A program made the translations under genes and the position numbers. Positions 6,474-53,865 of a stretch of DNA of 64,000 nucleotides are shown here, piece by piece. Positions within the stretch are counted from its first letter, which is position 1. Every line of letters begins with the position of its first letter. Below the pieces are notes generated by a model. That model searched no databases and was not told the DNA's origin. It saw only the letters and a program-made list of their open reading frames with translations. Source of the DNA: Candidatus Tayloriibacteriota bacterium (GTDB taxonomy: Bacteria; Patescibacteriota; Minisyncoccia; Phycocordibacterales; PALSA-1337); NCBI GenBank assembly GCA_003151615.1, contig PLXZ01000001.1, positions 67,795 through 131,794 on the forward strand, in the 5' to 3' direction.

Positions 6474-7554
<1,081 letters not shown>

Positions 7555-11079: not shown

Positions 11080-12420
11080 CTACTCCAGGGATATTTTCCT
11101 GTCTTTGAGCACCACTTTGCTCTTGAGACATGACAGGAGTTCGCGCTTTTCAGTAATCGTCCCTTCCTTGAGAAGATACTTTGCATACTCGCGCGTATCG
11201 ACGTCAGCCTTGCGATCTTTTGTTTTCATTCCGAGTACACCCATGCGGAATTTGTTGTACCGGATAATCTCCTCCTCGATCTTACCCTTCATGCCAATTT
11301 CATCAAGGTCGATGGTGTCGAGAAGATTGGTCAGCTCATCGATGAGGTCTTTTTCATTGATCGGCTGATTGGTGCAGTCGGTATTCCGTGCTTTGGTACA
11401 CATATAGTAGACATGGCGATTGACGCCGCCATCTTTCAGTTTTTTGAACTTTTCGTCGGCGGTGATGCCGGACTGACAGTATCCGCAAGTGATGAGCTTG
11501 GTGAAGGCGAATTCCTTGCTTTCAGTCTTTGGTATGTACTGCTCTTGGAGTGACGCTTGTACTTTGTCGAAGAGCTCCTTGGTAATGATGGGTTCATGCT
11601 TTCCTTGATACCACATGCCACCACCGGTGGGGTATTCAAACTCTCCGTAGTAGAAGGTATTGCGGAGAATGGTATATAGATTGGCTAAGGAGAGCTTCTT
11701 GTTATTTTTCGTTTTGAAGCCAGTTTGGCTGAGCCACCGATATGTCTGCCGTCCGCTCCATCCACCTGCGACCTTCTCAAATATCTGCCGGATGACAATC
11801 GATCGCCTCGGATCAAGCCGTACCTGACACTTTTTGTCGACATGCTTTTCATTGAGGTAGCCAGTCGGTGCCGTCGACGGTCGCCAACCCATCTCGCATC
11901 GAGCGCGAAGACCGCGCTTCACGTTGATGATCTTTTGGTCGTTTTCGAGCTTTGCTTGCGATCCGAGAATCATGAGCATGAATTTCTCGTTCGGGTTGTT
12001 AGTAAATTTCTGCGTATAGGTGCGTATCTCAAGAAGCTTACCCTGATCGAAAAGGTCGACGACCGCTCCTAGGTCTCCGGCGTTGCGGCTAAGTCTGTCC
12101 GGTGCCCAAGTGAGGATGCCATTAAACTTTCCGGCTCTGATTTCAGAAAGGAGTTCATTGTACACCGCACGCTGTCCAACTTCCTTTGAAGAGTGCGACT
12201 CTCGCTTCACCTCTGTTATTGCAAGCCCTTCTTTTTCGGCAAGTTGCGTCATCTCGCGCACTTGAGATTCGATTGAAAGGGCTTGCTTGTCTTCCTCCTC
12301 AGTCGACTTTCTTGCATACAGGCAGTAGCTCACCTTTATGGGCGCTTGGACGGCCTGCCTGTTAACGCCGCCCAAGGGAGCCCTTAATATTGTATTCATA
12401 CAGGCACCAAGGTACCGCAA
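11080..12420 (-). CDS. large serine recombinase (resolvase catalytic domain + recombinase domain + zinc ribbon), 446 aa
   Basis: YCLYARKSTEEEDKQALSIESQ catalytic Ser region; ...WAPDRLSRN; C-terminal CGYCQSG...YYMCTKARNTDC zinc ribbon. Confidence 0.85.
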   Translation of the reverse strand: MRYLGACMNTILRAPLGGVNRQAVQAPIKVSYCLYARKSTEEEDKQALSIESQVREMTQLAEKEGLAITEVKRESHSSKEVGQRAVYNELLSEIRAGKFNGILTWAPDRLSRNAGDLGAVVDLFDQGKLLEIRTYTQKFTNNPNEKFMLMILGSQAKLENDQKIINVKRGLRARCEMGWRPSTAPTGYLNEKHVDKKCQVRLDPRRSIVIRQIFEKVAGGWSGRQTYRWLSQTGFKTKNNKKLSLANLYTILRNTFYYGEFEYPTGGGMWYQGKHEPIITKELFDKVQASLQEQYIPKTESKEFAFTKLITCGYCQSGITADEKFKKLKDGGVNRHVYYMCTKARNTDCTNQPINEKDLIDELTNLLDTIDLDEIGMKGKIEEEIIRYNKFRMGVLGMKTKDRKADVDTREYAKYLLKEGTITEKRELLSCLKSKVVLKDRKISLE

Positions 12421-12519
12421 CGGTTGGGGGTGTCTAGTGCGTACTAGAGGCCTCGAAGTAGGTAACTTTATGTCCCGAAATACCCTTGTGTGGCTTCATA
12501 TATTCCGTATATCTGACAT

Positions 12520-14382
12520 TTACGGCATGGTAAACTCATCCCCGAAAATATCCTTCAATTTTTCGCCATGCTCCTCTGTAACCGCCGGATCAGGGACGAT
12601 TTTGCCGATATCAATGAACAGGTCTTTCTTCACCTGTAAAGGAACCTTACTTATGAATATATTTCTTTTTAATTTTTTGTCATTTTTATCGTCATCATCG
12701 GGAAGCGTCCGTCCCAAAGCCCTGCGAAGCGCCGAGTTGTGCTGATCGATGCACTCCTTGAGCCTTGCAAGCATGATTTTAATCCGATCATCTATGTCGA
12801 CTTCGTAGATGGCCGACAATTTTGTAAAAAGTACATCGAAAGCCAGGAGCTTTGCATAGCCGTCGATGACGGTCTGCCGTTCATTGACGAATACTTCCTC
12901 GTATCGGGGATTCTTGAACTCCAAGAATGTTTCGTCACCCTGCTTAATCTCCTTAAACATCATCTCTCCCTCGGATATTCCCGAAACGAGTGCCATCGAC
13001 ATGCCATATACGCTAAAAAAGTTCGGTTCACCTTTATCCGTCAGGCCACAGATGAGAAGCTCCTGATCGAGGTGATTGCCTTTTTGCTCCGGATCGTCGT
13101 CTGCGTAGACGAGACCGAGATTCGGTTCATATTCGTCGATCCGCTTTTTGAATTCCTTGACGAACTCATAGTCGGACGCGAAAGCGTAGAGGCTCTCTCC
13201 GGTTATGACTACACCCTCAAACGTCTCGAATGCAACCTTTTCATCAAGCTCTCCTTTCTCCGGAATTTCCATGCCGGAAATTTCCAAAGCTCTGCGGGCA
13301 TTTTCAAGCTCGCTGTCGCAGAGGCCTTTGCTGTAAAGTTTGTCCTGCATCGTTTCATGTTCCGTCCGTTCTCGTGTTGTAAGGGTGCCAGCAGATACGA
13401 GTTTGTTCAGAGTCGTACGGGCGAGAATTTTTTCACGAAGCCATCTTTCGAGAAGCTCTTTGCCATTACTGACGGCAAGCGGCGTGTACTGCTCAAGCAG
13501 ATCGCCGTCAAGCCAGTCCAAGCAGGCATTTTTAAGCATCGCCTCGATCGTGATTCGATGATCCTTCGCATACACTTCTACGGCATCCTTAATTTCATCA
13601 AATGTGACATCGTCCTCATCGTCCGATTCCTGATTTTTCGCCAATGATTTCCCTTTGACTGTAATGCCTTTACCAATGAGGAAGTGCCTTGCTATTTCGG
13701 CGAGAGGAATACAGGCGAAATAGTGGAAGATCTGATATTCTTTGGCGAATTTGTTATAGCAACGCTCGACGACAAGAGTGGCAAGCTTCTCTTTGGCTTC
13801 TGGAGTCAATTTGTCCTGGCCGTCAAAAAGGTTGGCGATGATTTCTTCCTGATCAAGGTACTGATGATCAACTTCGACCTCGGCGTATAGTTCATTGAAT
13901 GATTTTTTGTCCTCGGCGGTGAGATTCTCAAACGCGAGCCGGTAGACGGCGTAGTCGAAATCCATGCCGTCTTTGAGCTTGACAGCTCTCTGTTTTCCTG
14001 CGATTTCCATCGCTCCTTTCACGCTGACCTTCTTAATACGCTCAAGGCTTTCTATGCATTTCTTCATTTGACGTTGATGAGGATATGAGAGCAGGGCAAA
14101 CATCATCGTCGTTTTCCTGAAGTGTCCTGACTGAGCTTCGAGAAGAACGATTTCTGCTTCGATGCCCATACGTCCGGAATATTTCCAGCCTTCATTGAGG
14201 CGGTTCCATTCATGGGATTCAGTATTGTTCTTGGCCTGCCAATTTTCGAGTGCATTTTTGTCCGCTTCAGTCAGAACATCCTTGCCTGTCTTTGCGCGAT
14301 GAACGTCGTTTTGAATGAGCATGAGATAGCGCTCTTTAGGAGTGAGGTTTCCGCGCTGTAGATTTGTTGCGAAGTTTTTCAT
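12520..14382 (-). CDS. hypothetical acidic, largely helical protein, about 620 aa (start taken at MKNFATNL)
   Basis: long ORF; no Walker A or nuclease motif recognised; last gene of - strand operon 12520..17033. Confidence 0.5.
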   Translation of the reverse strand: MKNFATNLQRGNLTPKERYLMLIQNDVHRAKTGKDVLTEADKNALENWQAKNNTESHEWNRLNEGWKYSGRMGIEAEIVLLEAQSGHFRKTTMMFALLSYPHQRQMKKCIESLERIKKVSVKGAMEIAGKQRAVKLKDGMDFDYAVYRLAFENLTAEDKKSFNELYAEVEVDHQYLDQEEIIANLFDGQDKLTPEAKEKLATLVVERCYNKFAKEYQIFHYFACIPLAEIARHFLIGKGITVKGKSLAKNQESDDEDDVTFDEIKDAVEVYAKDHRITIEAMLKNACLDWLDGDLLEQYTPLAVSNGKELLERWLREKILARTTLNKLVSAGTLTTRERTEHETMQDKLYSKGLCDSELENARRALEISGMEIPEKGELDEKVAFETFEGVVITGESLYAFASDYEFVKEFKKRIDEYEPNLGLVYADDDPEQKGNHLDQELLICGLTDKGEPNFFSVYGMSMALVSGISEGEMMFKEIKQGDETFLEFKNPRYEEVFVNERQTVIDGYAKLLAFDVLFTKLSAIYEVDIDDRIKIMLARLKECIDQHNSALRRALGRTLPDDDDKNDKKLKRNIFISKVPLQVKKDLFIDIGKIVPDPAVTEEHGEKLKDIFGDEFTMP

Positions 14383-14383
14383 A

Positions 14384-14599
14384 TCATTTTCGCTTTTTAA
14401 GCGACTGCTCGATGAATTTGACCCGTTCTTCGAGATCAGCGACCTCGATGACTTTCGACAAGGCAAGCGCCACGCGCGAAATGGCAAGGGCGCGGCGCAG
14501 AGTTATTTTCCTCTCGGCCACGTCTTTCAAGGTTTCCGACAGGATTATAGCCGCTTCATCGGCAGTCATATGTTTGTTTGTGATGTTTATATTTTCCAT
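14384..14599 (-). CDS. small helical protein, 71 aa (MENINITNKHMTADEAAIIL...)
   Basis: stop separated by 1 nt from downstream ATG (14382); internal start chosen over upstream Arg-rich extension. Confidence 0.4.
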   Translation of the reverse strand: MENINITNKHMTADEAAIILSETLKDVAERKITLRRALAISRVALALSKVIEVADLEERVKFIEQSLKKRK

Positions 14600-14615
14600 A
14601 TTATTTTTATGTGTG

Positions 14616-14990
14616 TTACATGTTCTCGACAATCTCGTACCACGCCTTAACCTCCGCCGCCTTACCATCTTTCGTTATCCTTTTATACAAAGCCATGAGT
14701 ACGTTTGGCGTGAGTTTCCGCGCCCATGCGTTTATGCCTGGGACAAGACCATCCTTCTCAATCTTTTTGTTCCAATCAGAAAGGGTGGCGATATTAACGT
14801 TGAACCGTTTGGCGAATTCCGTTTGGGTCTTGATCGACAGAAGGTCAATTGCGACTTCGTCATCGATGCCGAATTTTTCGAGCAATTGTCGAGGCTGCCC
14901 ACGCAGTATCGACGGCATAGCCTTCCACATGAGGTAGGAGTCGAAATCCTGCTTTTTATAGACCTCCTGATTTGCAGAATCCTTAGCCAT
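14616..14990 (-). CDS. HTH DNA-binding protein, phage terminase-small-subunit-like, 124 aa
   Basis: LSIKTQTEFAKRFNVNIATLSDWNKK helix-turn-helix; position immediately after MTase genes as in prophage packaging modules. Confidence 0.4.
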   Translation of the reverse strand: MAKDSANQEVYKKQDFDSYLMWKAMPSILRGQPRQLLEKFGIDDEVAIDLLSIKTQTEFAKRFNVNIATLSDWNKKIEKDGLVPGINAWARKLTPNVLMALYKRITKDGKAAEVKAWYEIVENM

Positions 14991-14991
14991 T

Positions 14992-15750
14992 TCAGTTTAT
15001 CTTCTCAGCTTTTATGCCGGTCAGTTTCTCCCATCGGGCAATGGTGGTTGAGACATATTCCGGATCAATGTCAATGCCCACGCATCTTCGACCAAGATGC
15101 TCGCACGCGATCAAGGTGCTGCCACTACCGAGGAATGGGTCGTATATGCATTCGCCCATTTTCGTGGAATTTGGTATGAGCTTTCGCAAGAGTCCGACAG
15201 GTTTTTGTGTCGGGTGCAGTTTAGACTTTGATGGCTTCGGATGAAATATGATACTTTTAGCTTTTGTCCGCTCCATTTTGTGCCGACCCTTCCATCCGTA
15301 TGCGATGAGCTCGAATTGGGGAAGGTAATCCTTGCGCCCGAGAACGACATGATTTTTCACCCAGACGATCATTTGGCTGTAGTAGAAACCTGCCTGCTTC
15401 ATTCCCGCGCGGAGTGCCGGAAACATCATGTCACCGTTAAAAATGTAGCAGGCGTTGTAGGACTCAAGATGCGGTATGATCGCTTCAAGCCACGTTTTGG
15501 TAAAAGCGGCATATTCGTCATCGCTCTGGAGTTGATCTCCGATGATCACCCTGCCTGTATCGACGCCAAGTTTGCTCAGGTCTCTTTTACCCTCGACGTA
15601 GGCAACTCCGTACGGCGGATCCACTAGTACGCATCTTATTTTTCTGTCGCCAACGACCTTGCTTACAAACGCCGAATCGAGGGAACTGCCGCAGGCAACG
15701 ATATGATTGCTGAGCTTGTATATATCACCTTGTTTAATTTCGGTTTTCAT
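14992..15750 (-). CDS. DNA N6-adenine/N4-cytosine methyltransferase (N6_N4_Mtase family), complete
   Basis: motif IV VLVDPPYGVAY and C-terminal motif I DPFLGSGSTLIACE; start ATG overlaps upstream stop as ATGA. Confidence 0.85.
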   Translation of the reverse strand: MKTEIKQGDIYKLSNHIVACGSSLDSAFVSKVVGDRKIRCVLVDPPYGVAYVEGKRDLSKLGVDTGRVIIGDQLQSDDEYAAFTKTWLEAIIPHLESYNACYIFNGDMMFPALRAGMKQAGFYYSQMIVWVKNHVVLGRKDYLPQFELIAYGWKGRHKMERTKAKSIIFHPKPSKSKLHPTQKPVGLLRKLIPNSTKMGECIYDPFLGSGSTLIACEHLGRRCVGIDIDPEYVSTTIARWEKLTGIKAEKIN

Positions 15751-17033
15751 ATGAGTTTTGCTTTTTTGTTGGTAAAGGCCTCCCACCGGTCGATGATCAC
15801 AGTGGCGAAGATGAGATCCTGTTCAACGCCGCGCCATTTTCGATTGAGCTGCTCGCAGGCGATTAAGTCGCTGCCACTTCCCGCGAAGCCAGAAAAGACG
15901 ATGTGCCCAGGAGCACTGCACCGCTTCAATGGCTTTTCATTAAGCGACACCGGCTTCTGTGTCGGGTGAGCATAATCCTGGGCGTTGTCGCGTTTCTCGA
16001 GCCAGAGATTAATCATGTCGAAAATTTCCTCATGAACTTGGTTGCCGCTCCCGACTTCCTGATTAAGAATTTCGTTCAGATTCTTCATGTTGCTGTTGAG
16101 GTACGGCTTGCCTCGGATGCCATGAACGCAGGGCTCGTATACTTTATTCCACGCCACTTGCGGGGTCATGTTGAAATTATTTTTAATCCAAAGACAGACA
16201 CGCTTACTATCGATATCATTCTCACGAAAAAGCGTCTGCGTGAGCCATATGAACCGCTCATCGCACCAGTAAAAGAGATGACAGTCTGGCTTCGCTATCG
16301 TGAGCGCTGTCTTTATGCTTGCGTCCAAGAATGCCCCATACTCCACATCTTTTTTCGAGTCCTTTTTGCCGGTAAACGATCCCTCATACTTGCCGGATGT
16401 GCTGACGCCGTTTGAATAGTCCATGCCGATATTAAATGGAGGGTCGCAATATATGATGTCGGCAAGATCGTTGCCCATGAGTTTTTTTACCTGATCCGGC
16501 AGGGTTGAATCGCCGACAAGAAATCGGTGATCGCCAAGTTCCCATATTTCGCCGGGCTTTACTCGCGGTACTTTCGTTTCCTTTAGCGCTTTTTCGATAT
16601 CGTATTGATCGTCGATGACGTCGACATCGTCGAACAATGCTTGTAGTTCATCGTCTCCGAAGCCGACTTCAAGAAGAAGATCCATGTCCATGTCTTTTAG
16701 AAGCTCCTGATCCCACGAGCCGGTGTTCTGATTTTCGCGCAGAGCTGCTTCCTTGTATTCTGATTCCGTCAGCGGTCGATTTGGAATGCGCACATCGATG
16801 ACTTCATCTCCGCGACCCAAAAGATGAAGTATCTTTATTCGTTGATGGCCTGAAATTATCCGATCATCCGTGTTTATAACCGGTATGGACATCAAATTGA
16901 ATTTCTCCAAACTGGCTCGCAGATTACGTTCCTCGGCTTCGGTCAACTTGCGGGGATTTTTGTCCCAGGGCACAAGACCGGATACCTTCCGCTTGACTGT
17001 TGACCATGTCAGGTCCGTTTTTTCTTTTTTCAT
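15747..17033 (-). CDS. ParB-like nuclease N-terminal domain fused to DNA methyltransferase (phage/plasmid-type ParB-MTase)
   Basis: N-terminal ...NPRKLTEAE...IISGHQRIKIL (ParB/Srx fold); IIYCDPPFNIG and FSGFAGSGSDLIACE MTase motifs. Confidence 0.85.
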   Translation of the reverse strand: MKKEKTDLTWSTVKRKVSGLVPWDKNPRKLTEAEERNLRASLEKFNLMSIPVINTDDRIISGHQRIKILHLLGRGDEVIDVRIPNRPLTESEYKEAALRENQNTGSWDQELLKDMDMDLLLEVGFGDDELQALFDDVDVIDDQYDIEKALKETKVPRVKPGEIWELGDHRFLVGDSTLPDQVKKLMGNDLADIIYCDPPFNIGMDYSNGVSTSGKYEGSFTGKKDSKKDVEYGAFLDASIKTALTIAKPDCHLFYWCDERFIWLTQTLFRENDIDSKRVCLWIKNNFNMTPQVAWNKVYEPCVHGIRGKPYLNSNMKNLNEILNQEVGSGNQVHEEIFDMINLWLEKRDNAQDYAHPTQKPVSLNEKPLKRCSAPGHIVFSGFAGSGSDLIACEQLNRKWRGVEQDLIFATVIIDRWEAFTNKKAKLI

Positions 17034-17164
17034 TTTTATAATAAATTAGTTTATAAATTCACATCGACATTATTAATGCGTGCGTATCTGTCGACCGGAA
17101 ACGCACTGTCAACATCAAAGCGTTAACCAAATTAAAGACACAAGTGAGTGGTTAGGGAAAAGAA

Positions 17165-17192
17165 AAAAGCCTGATTTTTCAGGCTTTTTCAC
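17165..17192. terminator. bidirectional intrinsic terminator AAGCCTGA-tttt-TCAGGCTT flanked by A-run/T-run
   Basis: read directly; downstream of stop of 17249..18220 (-). Confidence 0.6.
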
Positions 17193-17248
17193 TGTCTGAT
17201 GTCAGGTTATCCCCATCACCGACCAATTTTGGTTAACGACTTGGACAA

Positions 17249-18220
17249 TCATTCGGAATACTTCAATCGATGATTGATACCCCATTTATTACCAGTGTAT
17301 TTGTGAAGTATTTCGGGAAGATTGTTTTTCTTGCACACGTTGCTTATACGTTTAATCTCTTTCGATATGACCTGCTTGGAATGTCCTAGGTCAGTCACAA
17401 GCTCAGAAAGAGTTTTTGAATTTTGGGAATATTTCCTGATGCCATACAGATGTTCAATAATGATGCACGCAAGCGGGGGAAGTTTTTCTTCCGATGTTTT
17501 CTTAAACACACCTCTCGTTGACTGATCGGATAGAAGATAGCCTTTTTCAAGAGCTAGATTGTCGTCAAGCATGATTGATCCGTCTTCTGTCGCGTACGTA
17601 TTTCGGGAAAAAAATTGTTCAACGGCTTCTTTTTTAAGAAAAAGTCCTTTCTCTGTTATTTTCTGGAATAAATCAATTATCGGCACCAGGAGTACTTTAT
17701 CCGGCAAGGAGATTTGCGGCGTTCCAGTATAGAAGACAGCACTTCGAGGTAAATGCGTGATAATGCTGAGTTTCGGCTTCTCGATGTCGTTTATGTCACG
17801 ACAGAAAAAAAGATGATAGTCCGCTCCATTTATCGTTTGCGTGCCCAAACTCCACAGTAAGCTGTCGATACTCTCGGAAATCGTTGGAGACAGAATATCC
17901 ATAGATTTCTGAAATGCACTAAGAAAATTTTCGATATTGAATTGCCACTGCTGTATTTCCGCCGGATTGAAATAATCACGTTTGGCATGTTCATTTTGGG
18001 TACACATTGTGTACGCACGGTCTTTTGAGACGTGATGAACTTCGACGTCTTCATTGTGGCAGGTCACGCACCATATGTTTTTCGGATCGCTCGTCTTTTC
18101 AAGTAAAGCCAAAGCAGGCAGGATATCAAAATCCCTTTTTCGTTTGTTGGCATCGTCGACGGTGATTACGATAGGAAAAAGACGTGCTTGTTTATTGAGT
18201 ATTTCAATTAGAAAATCCAC
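17249..18220 (-). CDS. hypothetical protein 323 aa with N-terminal Cys/His cluster (WCVTCHNEDVEVHH...CTQNEH) and C-terminal HTH-like segment
   Basis: ORF; overlaps upstream gene by 17 nt (operon). Confidence 0.45.
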   Translation of the reverse strand: MDFLIEILNKQARLFPIVITVDDANKRKRDFDILPALALLEKTSDPKNIWCVTCHNEDVEVHHVSKDRAYTMCTQNEHAKRDYFNPAEIQQWQFNIENFLSAFQKSMDILSPTISESIDSLLWSLGTQTINGADYHLFFCRDINDIEKPKLSIITHLPRSAVFYTGTPQISLPDKVLLVPIIDLFQKITEKGLFLKKEAVEQFFSRNTYATEDGSIMLDDNLALEKGYLLSDQSTRGVFKKTSEEKLPPLACIIIEHLYGIRKYSQNSKTLSELVTDLGHSKQVISKEIKRISNVCKKNNLPEILHKYTGNKWGINHRLKYSE

Positions 18221-18536
18221 GGTCTATTTTTGATTTTTTAAGCACTTGTCCGGCCTTTACGTCGAGATCGTCAAGGTCGTTAAGAGAACTTGTGTCTTTC
18301 CATGTGACGTAAAAGGTCTTCGTCCCGCGCGGATGTTTTTTCGTTGGCTTGAACTTTATTTTCATATCCACACGATTGAGTCGCAAGGAATCGATCTTGT
18401 CGGCGAGTTTTAAAGAATCCAATGTCCGCCAAATCATGTCCGTCCCGGATATACTTTCATTTTTTGTATAAATTTTCATCTGTGTCTGCCCATCTGGTGT
18501 CTTTAAATCAAAGCCTTTGAGCCACCAACCGTCCAC
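18204..18536 (-). CDS. hypothetical protein 110 aa
   Basis: ORF begins 2 nt after stop of truncated MTase gene. Confidence 0.4.
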   Translation of the reverse strand: MDGWWLKGFDLKTPDGQTQMKIYTKNESISGTDMIWRTLDSLKLADKIDSLRLNRVDMKIKFKPTKKHPRGTKTFYVTWKDTSSLNDLDDLDVKAGQVLKKSKIDRGFSN

Positions 18537-18537
18537 T

Positions 18538-19296
18538 TCAGACTATGAAATCTTTCCATCTTTGTGCATCGACAGTATCTTCTTGGTTATCACTATATAT
18601 CAAATTAAATTTTGGATGGTCGATATTTCGATACCAATAAATAACATTGTGTTTGCGAGGATAATAACTTTTAACTTGTCCCTGGTATGTCCTAAAATGC
18701 CAAATAATTTCATTGACCAGGTTTCCCTCACCGAATATCTCATCCAAAACCATTTTTACATAGTGCCCTTTTTTTTGATCAAGCTGTACAAAGATAGAGC
18801 CATCGGGTGCAAGCAATTCTTTTGCAACGACCAACCTTCTGCGTAAAAATTCAATAAATTCCGCGCCTTTCTTTTTGTCTACATAAGCCCTACTTCCCGA
18901 GGTCGTGGTAGTGAATTCTTCATCAGAAGCAAAGGGTGGGTCAATGTAGATAAGTTTTACCTTACCCTTAACTTTTCCTTTGACAAGCTCGTCTTCATTT
19001 TTATAAAAAGTTTTGAGAATTTGTAGGTTGTCACCGAATACCAAAAGATTATGCCAATCTTTAGCGGCAAGAGGATATTTTTCACCATTAAAGACTTTTT
19101 CAATTTGGAGGGGTACGGCTTTTGCCTCCTCGTTGTCTGCCAAGATATCCTCCTTTCGTGCCTTACCGGCATACACAAGTTCATACTCTTTTTGTTTAGT
19201 TGGAAAAAGAGCATACTTATACTCGGCAGGTATATCCTTACCGTTTTTTAAGCACTCAATTAAATATTCTTTATCGTATGAATTAAGATTCAGCAT
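18538..19296 (-). CDS. N-terminal catalytic half of a type III Mod-like / beta-class adenine DNA methyltransferase; truncated, lacking C-terminal AdoMet FxGxG motif
   Basis: LIYIDPPF motif IV, ...HYVKMVLDEIFGEGNLVNEIIWHF, ...RKHNVIYWYRN...KFN typical of Mod N-domain; ORF ends at 252 aa with no FxGSG downstream in any adjacent ORF. Confidence 0.65.
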   Translation of the reverse strand: MLNLNSYDKEYLIECLKNGKDIPAEYKYALFPTKQKEYELVYAGKARKEDILADNEEAKAVPLQIEKVFNGEKYPLAAKDWHNLLVFGDNLQILKTFYKNEDELVKGKVKGKVKLIYIDPPFASDEEFTTTTSGSRAYVDKKKGAEFIEFLRRRLVVAKELLAPDGSIFVQLDQKKGHYVKMVLDEIFGEGNLVNEIIWHFRTYQGQVKSYYPRKHNVIYWYRNIDHPKFNLIYSDNQEDTVDAQRWKDFIV

Positions 19297-19530
19297 AGGG
19301 TACAGCTATGCCGACTAAGATCCCCTTATTAAAAACAAGAAAGGGCACTCCCAGACGGTGTACCCATTCACGAATAGCCAAAGCCATCGATCCTGCCCGC
19401 TGAGAATGCCCTTTCAGGGCGGGATAGATGGACGACATAAAATGCCGAGCTACTCGAATGTAAATGGGTACATTTCATACTGTAACAAAAAAACTAAAAT
19501 TTTGCTAGGTCAAAATAGTCCTCTGTGTTT

Positions 19531-19556
19531 TAAACCATATTGTTTGAGTGTATAAT
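19531..19556 (+). promoter_or_regulatory. candidate sigma70-type promoter: TTAAAC, 15 nt spacer, extended -10 TGTATAAT, 7 nt before ATG 19564 (leaderless-like)
   Basis: ttaaaccatattgtttgagtgtataatagcaactATG. Confidence 0.35.
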
Positions 19557-19563
19557 AGCAACT

Positions 19564-20124
19564 ATGTCAAAAGATCTCTCCATAGAATATGCCCATATAT
19601 ACTCTAATAACAAGATCGGGGAGGAGCATAAGCTTTCGCTTGATATTCTAGGTAGCCTCCGTGACGAAGAAAAAGCTAAAGGCCACAGTATCTCCCTTGT
19701 AGTTCTTGTCGACGATTATTCCTTCCCTGATCCTGCATTTGACTACACGACCTTTTCAGCATGGCTCAGTGAGAACGGCTTCAAGCCAGACCTGGTACTA
19801 CGAGAATCACAGCTCATTCCACTCTGTGATGAGACGCTCAAGCTTGTGAATGACCCTAAACTCAAGGATCAGATCGGAGACTACGTCCGTCAGAAAAAAT
19901 ACCCATGTTCGTTATTCGTCGCTACATGGTATCTCCTTAGGCTCGGTTATCTTTCATCCCCGATCTTCAACGCCGAACTGGCAGCAAAAAATGTCATCAA
20001 TATATTACCCTTGAGTTTCAAACCGTTTGAAGAAAAAGCGTTGGAAATTATTGCGGCCACCAAATATGTGGATGCGGTTAAGAAAATCGATTGGCGATAC
20101 TTCGAAGGAAGATTGGTAGTATAA
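19564..20124 (+). CDS. hypothetical protein 186 aa
   Basis: ORF; start at MSKDLS directly after the candidate promoter. Confidence 0.5.
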   Translation: MSKDLSIEYAHIYSNNKIGEEHKLSLDILGSLRDEEKAKGHSISLVVLVDDYSFPDPAFDYTTFSAWLSENGFKPDLVLRESQLIPLCDETLKLVNDPKLKDQIGDYVRQKKYPCSLFVATWYLLRLGYLSSPIFNAELAAKNVINILPLSFKPFEEKALEIIAATKYVDAVKKIDWRYFEGRLVV

Positions 20125-20129
20125 TTTTA

Positions 20130-20558
20130 TTCATCATAGAGGTGGATAACCTCGTTGACACGACAAGGGCGGAGGTATAGCATGCTACTTCAGAGCTTAC
20201 TGCTCTCCTTAACAATGCAGTTGACCACTCCGTAGCAATACGGGGTACATAGGGCGACAACAATCGCCATCCTGTCGGTAGTGCGAGAGACGGTTCTTTT
20301 TCAGAACACCTGACGATGCTTGTGACGGATCAAAACAAAAGTCCAAACGAGCGCGTTTGTCGTGTCTGCGGACACACCGGGTTTGCATTCTGAGAGATTG
20401 CTATGTATCAATCCATCGACTATCGAGGGGCCGATATGCGCGTGACTCGTTCACTGTCGCTGGCCCCTCCCTTTTCACTAGAGTAACGTCTCATTCCTCC
20501 GAGAACGTTTGATGCCGCCGGGGCCCGTTGCACTTTCGCAACGGGCCCTATATTTTTT
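20130..20558 (+). ncRNA. candidate structured non-coding RNA (about 430 nt) of unknown class, ending in strong intrinsic terminator
   Basis: no ORF of 60 aa or more; GC-richer than flanks; many local hairpins (GAGGT-ggata-ACCTC; AGAGC-ttactg-GCTCT; CCGTA-GCAA-TACGG GNRA loop; GGCGA-caacaa-TCGCC; GTGTC-tgcg-GACAC; GAGGGGCC...GGCCCCTC) and 11-bp terminator stem. Confidence 0.4.
20520..20558 (+). terminator. rho-independent terminator GGGCCCGTTGC-actttc-GCAACGGGCCC + TATATTTTTT
   Basis: perfect 11-bp GC-rich stem followed by T-run. Confidence 0.8.
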
Positions 20559-20622
20559 CCAGAAAATGTGGTATTTTGATCTCAAACATAGCAACTTGAA
20601 ACTTTAACCGAAAGGCTCCGAT

Positions 20623-20970
20623 ATGTCTGAATCCTCTGATTACACCTGGTATATTGATACCTGCGGTGACAGCCGCACTAACGAATGCATTGCTCAAATG
20701 CTTACCGGCACCTCTGATGAATGCGAATGCTGGGAACAGCTCTGCGAAGACGATAAACGTCGCGCATTGTGGAGATGCCCCGATCACGAATTCCTATCAC
20801 GTTTCGAACATCACATGAAACGCTACAAATATCGCTATGCTATCTACAAGAAGAAGGGCAAGTATGGTGAGATTCGTCTCTGGCAATTCAGTCGTCCCGC
20901 CACTGTCCTCCGTAAGAACAAGCATCAGGCTGTTCCTGAACAGAAGGGACATCATCTTGTCACTGCATAA
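20623..20970 (+). CDS. Cys-rich small protein 115 aa (CGDSRTNEC...CECWEQLC...CPDH)
   Basis: ORF 60 nt after terminator. Confidence 0.4.
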   Translation: MSESSDYTWYIDTCGDSRTNECIAQMLTGTSDECECWEQLCEDDKRRALWRCPDHEFLSRFEHHMKRYKYRYAIYKKKGKYGEIRLWQFSRPATVLRKNKHQAVPEQKGHHLVTA

Positions 20971-21017
20971 ATTACACGTCACCCTTTCCTTCGAGGACTG
21001 GGTGATTTTTTCTCGAC

Positions 21018-21843: not shown

Positions 21844-21944
21844 GATAATTAAGTCAACACTTAATTATCCACATATTGGTCATTCTCTGATTTTTGACAT
21901 TTGTTGACATTTCATACAACAGCACGAATTATGGAGCAAGACAA

Positions 21945-21973
21945 ATGGGACACGGATTTTCGGAGTGTCCCAT
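21945..21973. promoter_or_regulatory. inverted repeat ATGGGACAC-N11-GTGTCCCAT upstream of arsR-like gene (candidate operator); related GTGTCCCATTTGTCCCATT at about 22062
   Basis: read directly; about 100 bp upstream of - strand ArsR start. Confidence 0.35.
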
Positions 21974-22204
21974 TCTCAAATATCTATTTTGCCCTTATTA
22001 GGCTTACCTATTTTTGGTGATACTATCGAAAAATGGCACGATCTGAAATATGCCTAAAAGTGTCCCATTTGTCCCATTTTGTTTTTAGCACCCCCGACCT
22101 AGGTTCCTCGGTTTAGTATGCTAAAATATCCTCAAAGGCCCTTACGGGGTCTTGTCTCATAAGGTTCGAGACAGGGCGGGGGCACAAGGAAAAAATAGGG
22201 TAAA

Positions 22205-22233
22205 ACAAAAAATCGCCGCTTGGCGATTTTTTG
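22205..22233. terminator. bidirectional terminator AATCGCC-gctt-GGCGATT with A-run/T-run, downstream of rpsT
   Basis: read directly. Confidence 0.7.
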
Positions 22234-22249
22234 TTAGAGTCTGTTTTGC

Positions 22250-22513: not shown

Positions 22514-22614
22514 GTGTTATTTATGGTTTTAGTTTGTGAGAGCAACATTATCACAGCGCCGTTTAAAATACAAGGAAAAATACAAGAAATCGCCAAATCA
22601 TATATAATGAACGC

Positions 22615-23244
22615 ATGATATCGCGCCTGACCGGAACAATCGTGCACACCGACCTGAAATACGTCGTTTTGGATGTGAACGGGGTCGGCTATAAAGTTTA
22701 CACCACGGCTGACCTGGCCAGCCGTATTGGAAACAGCGGAGGCACGGGCGGAAAAGATTCAAAAACAGTCACCGTTTGGACCTATCTCGCAGTGCGCGAC
22801 GATGCCATGGATTTATATGGCTTCCCCACGCTGTCGGAACTTAATTTCTTCGAACTGCTCATCGGTATTTCGGGAATCGGTCCGAAAACAGCTCTCGGCA
22901 TTTTGAATGTGGCATCAGTCGGAGCAATCGATAATGCGATCAGAAGCGGCGATGCCAGTCATCTCGTGAAGGTCGGCGGCTTGAGCAAAAAAATGGCGGA
23001 AAAAATCGTACTGGAATTACGCGATAAAATGGATGACATGCCAGAATTCGGCGAGACCGGCGGCGGACTTTCAGGACAAACAAAAGAAACCCAACGAAGC
23101 GATTCCGACACGATTGAGGCGTTGAAATCGCTCGGCTACACTCCGGCTGAAGCGCGCGACGCCCTCAAACAGCTCGACAAGGGTCTGAAAAACGCCTCGA
23201 CCGGCGAAAAAGTAAAGGCGGCATTGAAAGTTCTGGGGATGTAG
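22615..23244 (+). CDS. ruvA: Holliday junction DNA helicase RuvA
   Basis: MISRLTGTIVHTDLKYVVLDVNGVGYKV..., HhH LIGISGIGPKTALGIL, C-terminal domain III. Confidence 0.9.
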   Translation: MISRLTGTIVHTDLKYVVLDVNGVGYKVYTTADLASRIGNSGGTGGKDSKTVTVWTYLAVRDDAMDLYGFPTLSELNFFELLIGISGIGPKTALGILNVASVGAIDNAIRSGDASHLVKVGGLSKKMAEKIVLELRDKMDDMPEFGETGGGLSGQTKETQRSDSDTIEALKSLGYTPAEARDALKQLDKGLKNASTGEKVKAALKVLGM

Positions 23245-28403: not shown

Positions 28404-28416
28404 ATTTTTAATTTAG

Positions 28417-28623
28417 TTAATTTTGAGGCAGAAAACCTATGGGCGGTATTTCCTTGACGGTTTTCGTCTGAATATCGGAATCGTCGCCCATCGTTACCCT
28501 GCCTTGTTGGTAATTTTGTAATGCTATGCGGGTAGCCTCGCCTCGGCTTTTGGCTTCGACAACGACATGCCCATATTTAATTTCGGATAATAATACTTCG
28601 AATTTTTTGGTTAATTTTTTCAT
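28417..28623 (-). CDS. small protein 68 aa
   Basis: ORF; overlaps upstream small gene by 4 nt. Confidence 0.35.
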   Translation of the reverse strand: MKKLTKKFEVLLSEIKYGHVVVEAKSRGEATRIALQNYQQGRVTMGDDSDIQTKTVKEIPPIGFLPQN

Positions 28624-28823
28624 CTCATTAAAGAAGTGAAGTTAAACTTTGGAGCAGGTCGACGAAATTGTTTCGCAACCTTTTCCGCAGAGGCTTCCAT
28701 TTCCTGAATGAGTGGCGACGCTAACGCCTTAGCTTCGTCGAATGAGATTTGGCCTGCTTTGAGCAAGGCTTTTATTTCATTGATTTTGGCTATGGGTTTT
28801 TGAGGAGATATTGACATGTTCAT
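28620..28823 (-). CDS. small protein 67 aa
   Basis: ORF; first of an overlapping small-gene pair next to the recombinase. Confidence 0.35.
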   Translation of the reverse strand: MNMSISPQKPIAKINEIKALLKAGQISFDEAKALASPLIQEMEASAEKVAKQFRRPAPKFNFTSLMR

Positions 28824-28898
28824 ATATTCGTTTCATTTAATAATATAAACATAACAGCTTCACATCAACCGCAGTTATACACCCCCGACGCAACTTTT

Positions 28899-31165: not shown

Positions 31166-31576
31166 AATTTTTAGTTTTAGTTTTTTCCTTACCATAAGTA
31201 AGGAAAAAACTAGAAACTGCTAAATATAGGTTTAGAGCCGTATCCTTGATATCACTGCACATGCGGTTCTTTCGCGTAGAACCACGACCTAACACATACA
31301 AACCTATTTCCGTATTGAACAGTATTACTCTATCAGAAAAACGTCTGCTCGGCTTGTTCTGCCGATTGATGATTGCAAATACCTGTATCTATTGTACGAT
31401 TAAGCCACAATTGAATATATAAGTAGCCTAAACCATTTGAGCAATCAGTGGCATGGCGAAAATCCAGTCAAGGACAAAAACCCCATCGTGTGGGATTGCC
31501 TTGACTGGTCGTATCGGGAAACTGGTACGGGGAGCGCAAGCTCTCGCCCCGCGGTGGGATTTTTGTGTGCATTTTT

Positions 31577-32224
31577 ATGAAAACTATACTAGCTGATATA
31601 AAAAGTTTTTCAAAAAAGCCTGACTATGCAAAAGTCGGTAACAATATTCTGTATTCCATGTGTGAGAAATATCCAAGGCATGATAACGATTCTGAAATCT
31701 ATGCGAAATTTTGGCTTATTGGTAGAGCCTACGCTGTACAACTCGAAAGAAACAAAAGAAAAGTAAAAATTAAGGGCGATTTTTACAAACAAGTCGCAAA
31801 AACAGTTAAAAATAGATTCGACCAATTTTTGCTTCCTCTTAAAGGTAGAAATCTGACTACGAATGAAGACGTTCGTATCATTCTACAAATCCATAGGGCT
31901 GTAATGAAATTTATACGTAAAGAAATTACCGAGGATGACAAGAGGTCATTCGTATCAAAATATCTACATTTTCATTTTCGTGATCTATTTTTTATATACG
32001 ATTCAAAAGCTAGCAGTGTTATAAACAGTATAATTTCTCAATGTGGTTACGACGAAGAAAAAAGAGACTACAAAAAAATTATTAACGACACCGAATATGA
32101 CAAACCCTACGCTGATTTTTTTATAAAGTGTTTTTTCCTAAAAAAATATCTTGAAAAAAATGGTTGCAATTTTTCTTTGAGAGAGATTGATAGCTATCTG
32201 CTTGAGCGTGCGAACGCGGAGTAG
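31577..32224 (+). CDS. hypothetical Lys-rich protein 215 aa
   Basis: ORF divergent from regulator gene. Confidence 0.45.
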   Translation: MKTILADIKSFSKKPDYAKVGNNILYSMCEKYPRHDNDSEIYAKFWLIGRAYAVQLERNKRKVKIKGDFYKQVAKTVKNRFDQFLLPLKGRNLTTNEDVRIILQIHRAVMKFIRKEITEDDKRSFVSKYLHFHFRDLFFIYDSKASSVINSIISQCGYDEEKRDYKKIINDTEYDKPYADFFIKCFFLKKYLEKNGCNFSLREIDSYLLERANAE

Positions 32225-38765: not shown

Positions 38766-38798
38766 GGGTGGATTATAGCAGAAAATGAACCGGGTATT

Positions 38799-50963: not shown

Positions 50964-53621
50964 ATGTTTCGATCTCTCGCACATAAAATTCGCCACGCGC
51001 GGCGGCGCTTCCAGGCGGCCCGCCATAATTTCCGGAGAAAGTTCCATAAAAAATGGTGGTACCGTCATTTTGAAGGGATAGTCCTCACCCTAATCTCGCT
51101 CTGCTTCATCATGGGCGGCTTACTCGCGGTTTGGGTCGCGAACCTGAAAATTCCCGATTTGAGCGCTTTTGAAAATATACAAGTTTCCCAGTCAACCAAA
51201 ATTTACGACCGTACCGGCACGGTTTTGCTCTATAGCATCAACCCGAACACGCGGCGAACCGTTGTTCCTTTCGACCAAATTTCTCCGTACATAAAAAACG
51301 CCACGATCGCAATCGAAGACTCCGATTTTTATACCAACATCGGCATCAAGCCCCTTTCCATCATCCGTTCCGGCATAGTCGATGTTTTTCACGCTGGCTA
51401 TGATCAGGGCGGATCGACAATTACCCAGCAGGTCATAAAAAACTCCCTTCTCACTTCAAACAAAACGATCTCGCGAAAGATAGAAGAGCTTGTGCTGGCA
51501 GTAAAACTGACGCGCGAAATGCCGAAAGACGATATTCTCGACACCTATTTGAATGAAATATCATACGGGGGAACGCTCGACGGAGTTGAATCGGCGAGTC
51601 AGGCATTTTTCGGAGTCGATGCAAGCAATGTTGACCTCGCGCAGGCGGCATACATAGCCGCGCTTCCCCAGGCGCCGAGCTTTTACTCTCCATATGGCCA
51701 GAATAAAGCGGCGCTGGATGCCAGACAAAAATTGGTTCTCCAGAGAATGCTCGTGAATAAATTAATTACGCAGGACCAGTACAATCAGGCGGTTGCTGAA
51801 ACAGTCACGTTCCTGCCCCAGAATAGCGGCGGAATTCTCGCGCCCCACTTCGTTTTTTACGTCGAAAATTTGCTCGAACAGCAATACGGCGACGATGCAA
51901 TTCTCAATGGCGGACTGAAAGTCATAACTACTCTCGATTATAGCCTACAACAGAAAATGGAAGGCGTTGTGTCAACATTTGGACCTCAAATCGAACAGCA
52001 ATATGAAGCAAGCAACACAGCCGCAGTCGCCATTAACCCTCAAAACGGAGATATACTGGCCATGATCGGTTCCCGGGATTACAATGACCAGAGCATCCAG
52101 GGTAATTATAATGACGCCACAGCCGAACGCCAGCCTGGTTCAACATTCAAACCTTTCGTATATACGACCCTTTTTGAAAAGGGATTTACACCCGACACAA
52201 TTCTGTTTGACGTCCCTACGGAATTTTCAACTTCATGCACCGTTGAAGGAATGCCGATTAACCCGACTGCGGCATCGAGTACTTGCTACCATCCGCAGGA
52301 TTATGACAGTAAATGGATGGGTCCGATTCCGATTCGCGTGGCGCTTGCCCAATCGCGAAACGTTCCCGCGGTTGAATCTCTGTATATGGCCGGAATTCCA
52401 CAATCAATTACGACGGCTCAAGCTATGGGTATAACAAGCCTGACTGATGCAAACCGTTACGGACTGACTCTCGTGCTGGGAGGAGGAGAAGTTTCGCTTC
52501 TTGAAATGACCAGCGCTTACGGCGTATTCGCGAATGACGGTGTTCGAAATCCATACCGTTCGATATTGGAAGTGCAGGACAGCAACGGAAATATTCTTCA
52601 GCAGGCAGCATCAACAACTGACGGCGTTCAGGTTATTCCGGCCCAGAATGCGCGCCAGATAAGCGATATTCTTTCCGACCAGACTCCCGGCATCATGATG
52701 TCGAGCATCAAAGCTCTCGTCCAGCCGATGAACCGTCCCGTTGCCATAAAAACAGGAACGACGAACGACGACCGCGACGTATGGGCAATCGGTTATGCGC
52801 CGAATCTCGTCATCGGAGTTTGGGGTGGTAAAAATGACAACACCCCGATGGATACTTCCGGTACTGCCGGACTTATCATTACGCCTACATGGGCCGCGTT
52901 GATGACTGTTGCATTGCCGGGATTGCCTGTCGAAAATTTTAAGGCGCCAAATCCAACCCCGGCGACTGATAAACCTATACTACGCGGCATATGGCAGGGC
53001 GGAGTGTCATATAAAATAGACACGGTCTCAGGAAAAGTGGCTACGCAATACACGCCGGCCGCGACAACAAAAGAAATTGTCTTTGACGATGTTCATTCAA
53101 TATTAAATTGGCTTGATCCGAATGATCCTCTCGGTCCTGCGCCGACCAATGCTTCGAGTAGTTCACAATACCCGTATTGGGAATATGCCGTCTCGCAATG
53201 GATGACAACTACGTATTTACCGGCACATCCTGATTTCAAGGAAGTTCCGGCAGCCGCTCAAATCATACCGACTGCAACCGATGACGTGCATGTGCCTGCG
53301 AATTTTCCCATGGTGACAATCACTTCTCCTTTAAATGGAACGACTGTCGACCCGAGCCAAAGAATGACTGTCAATTTCACCGAGAGCGGCAAGTATCCCC
53401 TTCAAAAAGCCGATTTATACGTGAACGGCAATTATATTACTACAAACAATACAAGTTTGGCGACATTCTCATTCACACCGAATGACGTAGGAGCCACTGC
53501 GGGCATTAATACCATCGAAATTGATGCGTACGACTCCGTCCTTAACCAAGGACAAGGCACGACCACATTCACGATAGCGGGCGCCGCCAACTCCACTTCT
53601 ACTGGAGATCAGACACAATAA
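50964..53621 (+). CDS. class A penicillin-binding protein (PBP1A-type transglycosylase/transpeptidase)
   Basis: N-terminal TM; GT51 motifs (EDSDFYTN..., GGSTITQQ); transpeptidase STFKPF, KTGTTND. Confidence 0.85.
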   Translation: MFRSLAHKIRHARRRFQAARHNFRRKFHKKWWYRHFEGIVLTLISLCFIMGGLLAVWVANLKIPDLSAFENIQVSQSTKIYDRTGTVLLYSINPNTRRTVVPFDQISPYIKNATIAIEDSDFYTNIGIKPLSIIRSGIVDVFHAGYDQGGSTITQQVIKNSLLTSNKTISRKIEELVLAVKLTREMPKDDILDTYLNEISYGGTLDGVESASQAFFGVDASNVDLAQAAYIAALPQAPSFYSPYGQNKAALDARQKLVLQRMLVNKLITQDQYNQAVAETVTFLPQNSGGILAPHFVFYVENLLEQQYGDDAILNGGLKVITTLDYSLQQKMEGVVSTFGPQIEQQYEASNTAAVAINPQNGDILAMIGSRDYNDQSIQGNYNDATAERQPGSTFKPFVYTTLFEKGFTPDTILFDVPTEFSTSCTVEGMPINPTAASSTCYHPQDYDSKWMGPIPIRVALAQSRNVPAVESLYMAGIPQSITTAQAMGITSLTDANRYGLTLVLGGGEVSLLEMTSAYGVFANDGVRNPYRSILEVQDSNGNILQQAASTTDGVQVIPAQNARQISDILSDQTPGIMMSSIKALVQPMNRPVAIKTGTTNDDRDVWAIGYAPNLVIGVWGGKNDNTPMDTSGTAGLIITPTWAALMTVALPGLPVENFKAPNPTPATDKPILRGIWQGGVSYKIDTVSGKVATQYTPAATTKEIVFDDVHSILNWLDPNDPLGPAPTNASSSSQYPYWEYAVSQWMTTTYLPAHPDFKEVPAAAQIIPTATDDVHVPANFPMVTITSPLNGTTVDPSQRMTVNFTESGKYPLQKADLYVNGNYITTNNTSLATFSFTPNDVGATAGINTIEIDAYDSVLNQGQGTTTFTIAGAANSTSTGDQTQ

Positions 53622-53865
53622 AACCGGGTAGTTGCGTTCGAATTTCAGCCAGAATCACCTCTTTTTTCATAAAGATATGGTTTCGCGCGGCCGGACCGCC
53701 TTGAATCCTGATAATTTTGTTTTTCATCTCAATTTCCTTCAAATCAAGCTTCACTCCGGCAATTTTTTCTATTGAATCGACAATAATTTGCCTCGTGCCC
53801 ATCTCTTTCAATGCCGCATTTTTGAATTTATCGAAAAAACCGCCGATATTGAAGTTAATTGGCAT
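53599..53865 (-). CDS. small protein 88 aa, possibly DUF721/DciA-like (located next to dnaN)
   Basis: position between dnaN and next gene; size; no strong motif. Confidence 0.3.
   Translation of the reverse strand: MPINFNIGGFFDKFKNAALKEMGTRQIIVDSIEKIAGVKLDLKEIEMKNKIIRIQGGPAARNHIFMKKEVILAEIRTQLPGFIVSDLQ

Follow-up and report, generated by a model that had tools for sequence, protein, structure and literature searches.

A GC-rich, hairpin-rich non-coding stretch closed by a strong terminator and restricted to one Parcubacteria-like species

A gap of 498 nt without genes separates the stop codon of a 186-aa gene (20124) from the ATG of a Cys-rich ORF (20623) in a Candidatus Tayloriibacteriota contig. 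We hold with moderate confidence that this gap is a species-restricted non-coding spacer, transcribed as the 3' tail of the 186-aa gene and closed by a strong terminator. The terminator is, in our reading, the one part of the stretch with a clear job; the remaining 390 nt are predicted to fold somewhat above average, with no evidence of conservation of, or selection on, that fold. The stretch is at most an orphan RNA candidate, unproven. All positions refer to the window, the whole stretch of 64,000 nt that was analysed, which is part of a metagenomic contig of 563 kb (ena:ERZ27254241:k141_1990104), and the features discussed below are as follows.

19564-20124, plus strand: 186-aa gene of a conserved Patescibacteria/Parcubacteria family
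20125-20519, plus strand: GC-rich, hairpin-rich non-coding stretch, with no homologue detectable beyond one species
20155-20183, plus strand: promoter-like TTGACA-17-TAGCAT
20227-20246, plus strand: hairpin ACUCCGUA-GCAA-UACGGGGU, 8 pairs, GNRA tetraloop
20244-20409, plus strand: imperfect rod of 166 nt in the minimum free energy (MFE) fold, with many G-U pairs (z=-3.9 on the plus strand, -0.8 on the minus strand)
20362-20375, plus strand: hairpin GUGUC-UGCG-GACAC, UNCG-type loop
20425-20469, plus strand: strongest internal hairpin, GAGGGGCCG...UGGCCCCUC
20520-20558, plus strand: Rho-independent terminator, with a 12-pair stem, a 6-nt loop, then ATA and T6
20553-20622, plus strand: the Cys-rich ORF's own upstream region, where homology with copies in other contexts starts
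20623-20970, plus strand: Cys-rich ORF of 115 aa

The sequence-only reading had described 20130-20558 as free of ORFs and richer in GC than its flanks, and both statements stand. The largest ORFs overlapping these positions reach at most 61 aa, and none has gene-like codon usage: the log-likelihood per codon of the stop-free stretches runs from -0.37 to +0.10, compared with a mean of +0.26 and a 5th percentile of +0.05 for the genes of this genome. The GC content of 20125-20622 is 49.0% against a window mean of 44.9%, a modest excess that nevertheless makes this the GC-richest among gaps of at least 150 nt, the remaining ones lying between 29 and 48% on a rough gene map. Tandem repeats and TIGR or CRISPR-like arrays are absent from the stretch, and no terminal or direct repeats bracket it.

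A short coding gene, the finding that would have explained the region otherwise, was looked for and none is credible, with homology, codon usage and start signals all negative. Stop-free stretches of 76 aa occur in two frames. The one at 20282-20509 has no protein match at E<=0.001 among 1.84 billion representative proteins, and twelve other stop-free stretches of at least 30 aa, taken from six frames and concatenated, have none at E<=10 among 5.8 billion proteins, which also means that nothing similar has been called as a spurious ORF elsewhere. Recoding UGA opens no long frame. Two small ORFs remain, a 17-aa ORF (MLLQSLLLSLTMQLTTP) at 20182-20235 with GGAGG 6 nt 5' of its ATG (20182), and a 16-codon ORF at 20436-20486. 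Small ORFs led by a Shine-Dalgarno sequence were nevertheless rejected, since the genes of this genome are mostly leaderless; the GGAGG carries little weight because most genes place a -10 box 5-8 nt ahead of the ATG and lack a Shine-Dalgarno sequence. This arrangement is seen at most genes of the window as a TATAAT-like box 5-8 nt 5' of the ATG (e.g. 19551-19566, 22603-22617 and 38772-38780), which suggests that leaderless mRNAs are widespread in the organism.

The right end of the stretch is its clearest element. The terminator stem GGGGCCCGTTGC-ACTTTC-GCAACGGGCCCT occupies 20520-20549, with 9 of its 12 pairs being G-C, and T6 follows at 20553-20558; the hairpin alone has a folding z of -5.5, and 20520-20558 is the top terminator-like site of a 3-kb scan. 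Since no T-run follows the hairpin on the minus strand, the terminator is directional. The earlier claim of a near-ideal intrinsic terminator shortly before ORF 20623 was accurate, the distance from the end of the T-run to the ATG being 64 nt. The same scan found no other terminator-like site on the plus strand between 20124 and 20520, and for this reason we infer that transcription reads through from the 186-aa gene. The plus strand of the stretch would thus be transcribed as a 3' tail of that gene, possibly with a contribution from a weak internal promoter, and the terminator would stop transcription arriving from the left and insulate the Cys-rich ORF, which brings a promoter-like box and a short leader of its own. 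The hairpins upstream of the terminator would, on the same reading, have no function.

The 186-aa gene itself is well conserved. Its product has 534 homologues that are 60-74% identical, some of them tagged PF28097, although it has no match in Pfam, NCBIfam, PHROGs or PADLOC, and homologues of the window's genes are annotated as Patescibacteria, Parcubacteria or Candidatus Taylorbacteria. With a TATAAT at 19551-19556, 7 nt 5' of its ATG, the gene looks leaderless from its sequence. The stretch is absent behind homologues at 62-74% identity, where unrelated genes start within 12-32 nt; a GATase, a pyrophosphatase, PspC and a 608-aa ORF are among these 3' genes, and the genomic neighbours of the family vary between genomes.

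The Cys-rich ORF is independent of the stretch. Among 5.8 billion proteins its homologues form only three clusters, none of them with the stretch, and the ORF sits in differing contexts in different contigs. In copies L003-L009 similarity to the window starts only at about 20553-20560, within the T-run or directly behind it, so that the shared upstream segment consists only of the 65-70 nt after the T-run (the L010 contig itself begins at 20559); the DNA further 5' in L003-L009 is unrelated to the window and has no terminator. All ORF copies carry in this segment a conserved TGnTATTTT box (TGGTATTTT, 20569-20577), which resembles an extended -10 element as a motif only, and a GAAAGG precedes the ATG within the same shared region. 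Because homology of the copies in other contexts begins only after the T-run, the Cys-rich ORF is a separate unit, and this contradicts the reading of the stretch as a leader, riboswitch or attenuator. The sequence-only reading had seen in the order of the elements the layout of a riboswitch, T-box or attenuator; this part of it is not supported, as no Rfam model matches and the ORF occurs elsewhere without the stretch, sharing only post-terminator DNA.

Start signals at the left end are less clear than the terminator at the other end. The TTGACA-17-TAGCAT element is not above chance in a scan of the 3-kb region, which counted 9 promoter-like sites with 6.0±2.4 expected. Every copy except the window's has two extra G in the G-run 20167-20170, which lengthens the spacer between TTGACA and TAGCAT to 19 nt in all other strains, so the element is weak evidence for a promoter. 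Its predicted -10 box (TAGCAT) also overlaps the ATG at 20182. A TATAAT at 20120 was rejected as a promoter, since the window has 51 copies of this hexamer, most of them not near gene starts, and it carries no weight.

The description of the region as structured survives in part. At least six local hairpins had been reported, including a GCAA tetraloop and an 8-bp closing stem, and every one listed was found in the sequence. Counting hairpins of at least 5 pairs with a loop of 3-8 nt gives 10, compared with 5.7±1.7 in 500 dinucleotide shuffles, of which 5 reach 10 or more (p ~0.01). The GNRA and UNCG-type tetraloops can be read as such on the plus strand only. The whole region folds better than shuffles (z=-5.5 on the plus strand, -3.2 on the minus strand), as does the region without its terminator (-3.6 and -1.2; -3.0 and -1.5 in a repeat run), and the plus strand is favoured in both cases. 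Calibration against this genome is more sobering: among 140 windows of 390 nt, 9% reach z<=-3.0 and 3% reach z<=-3.6, a strand difference as large as the region's is found in about 6%, and a composition-regressed folding score without the terminator falls to z=-1.96. Folding is thus unusual against shuffles and only moderately so against the genome, 3-9% of whose windows do as well.

No single architecture emerges from the predictions. The ensemble is diffuse, with a frequency of 0.0001 for the MFE structure, and only a few kcal separate two global folds that are incompatible. One contains the rod at 20244-20409, whose strand contrast is inflated because its boundaries were picked from the plus-strand fold; the other has a 10-pair long-range helix joining 20157-20166 with 20357-20366 (an inverted repeat), with local hairpins inside. 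The 20362-20375 hairpin competes with both the rod and the long-range helix. The domain 20414-20514 has z=-3.0 on the plus strand and -2.1 on the minus strand.

Conservation offers little to support the hairpins. Neither blastn against phages and plasmids nor a search for exact 18-20-mers of the stretch in viral contigs returned a match, and scans of viral contigs with six degenerate 24-nt patterns, derived from stop-free translations of the region, found nothing. The same kind of scan, again with six patterns, located a single copy in JGI metagenome contigs, 99.6% identical, and about ten ENA/JGI contigs reached through neighbouring-protein look-up are all at least 99% identical across 18541-21010; the JGI metagenomes 3300029908, 3300029986 and 3300031788 are among the samples with the region. 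No diverged homologue was therefore found by phage and plasmid blastn or, at the sensitivity of pattern-based searching, in viral and metagenome contigs. All copies in the collections are at least 99% identical and so offer no diverged homologue in which pairs could covary; as far as the data reach, conservation of the hairpins in related genomes, on which the earlier proposal depended, was not seen.

Variants within the species speak to the same point. Four variable sites occur in 434 nt, a density equal to that of the adjacent gene. Two of them, G20278A and G20427A, turn predicted G-C pairs into A-C: the first breaks the 20244-20409 rod without compensation, and the second, present in most other strains, places an A-C mismatch inside the 20425-20469 hairpin. 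Jointly the two destabilise the fold by 7.5 kcal/mol, a greater loss than 92% of random double G>A changes cause. The sole pair-preserving change is C20547T, which in some strains converts a terminator G-C to G-U. Strain L030 in addition carries 7 changes within 16 nt (20379-20394) that break the rod, with identical flanks and no compensating change; this patch falls within L030 positions 1-30 and could be gene conversion, the donor being a diverged copy absent from the data, or a contig-end artefact. Judged from these alignments, neither covariation nor structural constraint is apparent, although four variants among strains at least 99% identical are too few and too shallow to exclude either.

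Known RNA families do not account for the stretch. Rfam 15 at gathering scores, applied to the whole window, reports nothing there, and when both strands of 19900-20800 were searched at E<=10, all that appeared were chance matches of snoRNA type with E>5. The latter search took in GOLLD, ROOL, HEARO, raiA, OLE, tmRNA, RNase P and SRP as well as 6S, T-box and all riboswitches. Thus the scan that the sequence-only reading had proposed, large-RNA families included, matched no family even at E<=10: GOLLD, ROOL, HEARO, raiA and OLE are missing by both gathering score and the E<=10 covariance-model search, and riboswitch, T-box and leader models have no match at E<=10. ARAGORN finds no tmRNA in the stretch, and the impression by eye that it resembles none of tmRNA, RNase P, SRP, 6S or T-box is borne out by Rfam and, for tmRNA, by ARAGORN. 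6S RNA typically has a large central bubble, which the predicted rod 20244-20409 lacks.

The locus around the stretch is, from sequence comparison, mosaic and recombination-prone. An island at 11080-18541 encodes a large serine recombinase (11080-12420), unknown proteins of 655, 323 and 110 aa, and three phage-like N6/N4 DNA methyltransferases, one of them fused to a ParB-like domain. At the island's right end (18541) a methyltransferase is cut short to 252 aa, compared with at least 644 aa in strains L023 and L024, and the stretch at 20130-20558 lies outside the island. Further to the right, L002, L010, L018 and L023-L025 have a 474-bp insertion at 21010/21025 (L002 1907-2381) with a 52-aa ORF, placed between the Cys-rich ORF and an AHSA1-like gene. 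Identity to the insertion-bearing strains is 99.6% left of 21010 and 95% to the right, and divergence appears again after 22185. A reverse transcriptase on the minus strand (6474-7554) is split into two ORFs that overlap (6898-7554 and 6474-7061), as a frameshift or a pseudogene would produce; it is most similar to group II intron RT/maturase and to the defence RTs UG17 and Drt2. A tie of the stretch to the reverse transcriptase or to the serine-integrase island was rejected, the former being 13 kb away and the latter ending at 18541.

Several features sit uneasily with a 3' tail of the 186-aa gene. A gene-free gap of 500 nt is unusual, Patescibacteria-type genomes being compact, and this one is the most GC-rich of the window, with a hairpin excess at p ~0.01, a folding asymmetry between strands (-3.6 versus -1.2) seen in only about 6% of windows, GNRA and UNCG-type loops on the plus strand only and a perfect TTGACA box near the 5' end; moreover, the gap in homologues may mean merely that no genus-level relative has been sequenced. 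Much of this is also what would be expected of a lineage-restricted structured ncRNA of about 370-430 nt on the plus strand, ending at the terminator and acting in trans or binding a protein. It would arise from its own promoter (TTGACA-17-TAGCAT with a start at about 20190, or TATAAT 20120) or by processing of the 3' UTR, and we consider it less probable than the 3' tail. Its credit includes plus-strand folding at z=-5.5, or -3.6 once the terminator is left out (-3.2 and -1.2 on the minus strand), the hairpin excess, the top GC among gaps, the pairing of a promoter-like box with a strong terminator, the lack of coding signal, and tetraloops and many G-U pairs specific to the plus strand. The strain variants nevertheless break its predicted helices, the ensemble is diffuse with two incompatible folds, the folding score is shared by the top 3-9% of genome windows, and promoter spacing is spoiled in all other strains; there is also no Rfam match and no homologue outside strains at least 99% identical. 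It is doubtful that we are dealing with a structured RNA of 370-430 nt that is unrelated to 4227 Rfam families, belongs to one Parcubacteria-like species and lies beside a conserved core gene. The length had earlier been taken to suggest a stand-alone ncRNA, to be tested by Rfam matches and by conservation or covariation of the hairpins in related genomes; by these measures a stand-alone structured RNA is, as far as the data reach, currently unsupported.

The remaining explanations fare worse than either of these two. DNA of foreign origin left as junction or filler by cassette exchange, with inverted repeats that are incidental or serve as protein-binding sites, is unlikely: the mosaic locus suits it (island end at 18541, break of the ORF copies at about 20553, 474-bp insertion at 21010/21025, break at 22185), as do the step in identity from 99.6% to 95% at 21010 and a GC content unlike that of other gaps, whereas phage, plasmid and viral contigs give no match, terminal or direct repeats do not bracket it, and the strand asymmetry of folding suggests a feature of the RNA rather than of the DNA. 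A cis-regulatory leader (riboswitch, T-box or attenuator) controlling read-through into the Cys-rich ORF is quite unlikely and already largely contradicted. Leader, terminator and ORF do follow one another on one strand, and GGCCCC at 20462-20467 could have two alternative partners, GGGGCC at 20427-20432 and GGGGCC at 20520-20525 in the 5' arm of the terminator, a possible 6-pair antiterminator as read from the sequence; the 16-codon ORF 20436-20486 is present as well. With its 6 pairs this antiterminator is far weaker, however, than the hairpins of 9 and 12 pairs that it must displace, the small ORFs led by a Shine-Dalgarno sequence are not credible where genes are mostly leaderless, and 390 nt is far beyond the length of known leaders; family models find nothing at E<=10, ORF homologues elsewhere lack the stretch and share homology only after the T-run, and the conserved extended -10-like box lies between terminator and ORF. 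Least probable of all is a decayed gene or hidden small protein, such as the 17-aa ORF, possibly a type I toxin: the GGAGG 6 nt before ATG 20182 and the 76-aa stop-free stretches in two frames speak for it, against a six-frame protein search without match, codon usage like that of non-coding DNA, a genome that hardly uses Shine-Dalgarno sequences, a predicted -10 box overlapping the ATG and UGA recoding that does not help.

Comparison with known systems places the stretch at an early stage. The nearest likeness is to the unnamed GC-rich intergenic-region candidates from the GC/length screens of the Breaker laboratory (PMC6429828, PMC8632094, PMC11109978). Like them, the stretch is a long gap that is GC-richer than others in a lower-GC genome, with predicted hairpins and a terminator, picked out in a single genome. 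A motif is reportedly accepted in such screens only once homologues give covariation; unlike accepted motifs, the stretch has no diverged homologue in the collections searched and stands at the unvalidated stage. It resembles GOLLD, ROOL, OLE, raiA and HEARO in spanning several hundred nt, in having many hairpins and in lying near mobile or variable DNA, and differs from them in lacking multi-species conservation, a well-defined predicted architecture and a model match. Small RNAs derived from 3' UTRs that share the mRNA terminator include CpxQ and SroC of enterobacteria; RNAs of this type are 50-150 nt long, conserved across genera and equipped with defined seed regions. The stretch is like them in lying on the same strand as the upstream gene with no intervening terminator, in ending at an intrinsic terminator and in having a possible internal promoter, but it is 430 nt long, an orphan and known from sequence alone. 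With terminator-based leaders it shares the order of structured region, terminator and ORF, and it departs from them in having no family match and in preceding an ORF that has its own conserved upstream region and occurs elsewhere without the stretch.

If the hairpins were functional, this would join a very small number of large ncRNAs described in candidate-phyla-radiation bacteria, a group in which RNA biology has hardly been explored. Even so it would be an orphan entry, without homologues, partner or phenotype. The useful results are mostly negative, namely that the stretch is neither a riboswitch-type leader nor part of a known large-RNA family; the one function that can be demonstrated for it is transcription termination, at a locus that is mosaic and prone to recombination.

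Other parts of the window also show structure. The gap 21844-22249, from an ArsR-like gene to rpsT, folds strongly on both strands (composition-regressed z of about -3.3 to -3.7) and contains a perfect 14-nt inverted repeat (21940-21953 with 22060-22073) as well as a 26-nt inverted repeat at 22192-22247, just 3' of the rpsT stop codon. The interval 28404-28898 on the minus strand (z=-5.8) was rejected as a structured gap, as it holds two small ORFs. ARAGORN calls a 90-nt tRNA-Arg(tct) at 53567-53656 on the plus strand, overlapping the 3' end of ORF 50964-53621; the Rfam tRNA model does not report it at gathering score, and either the call is false or the tRNA may be of an unusual kind. The gathering-score search of the window identified two tRNAs and one LOOT RNA (RF03000), the latter a full-length match at 31425-31545 on the plus strand (88 bits, with the gathering score at 46.4; E=2.6e-15) located just 5' of ORF 31565-32224.
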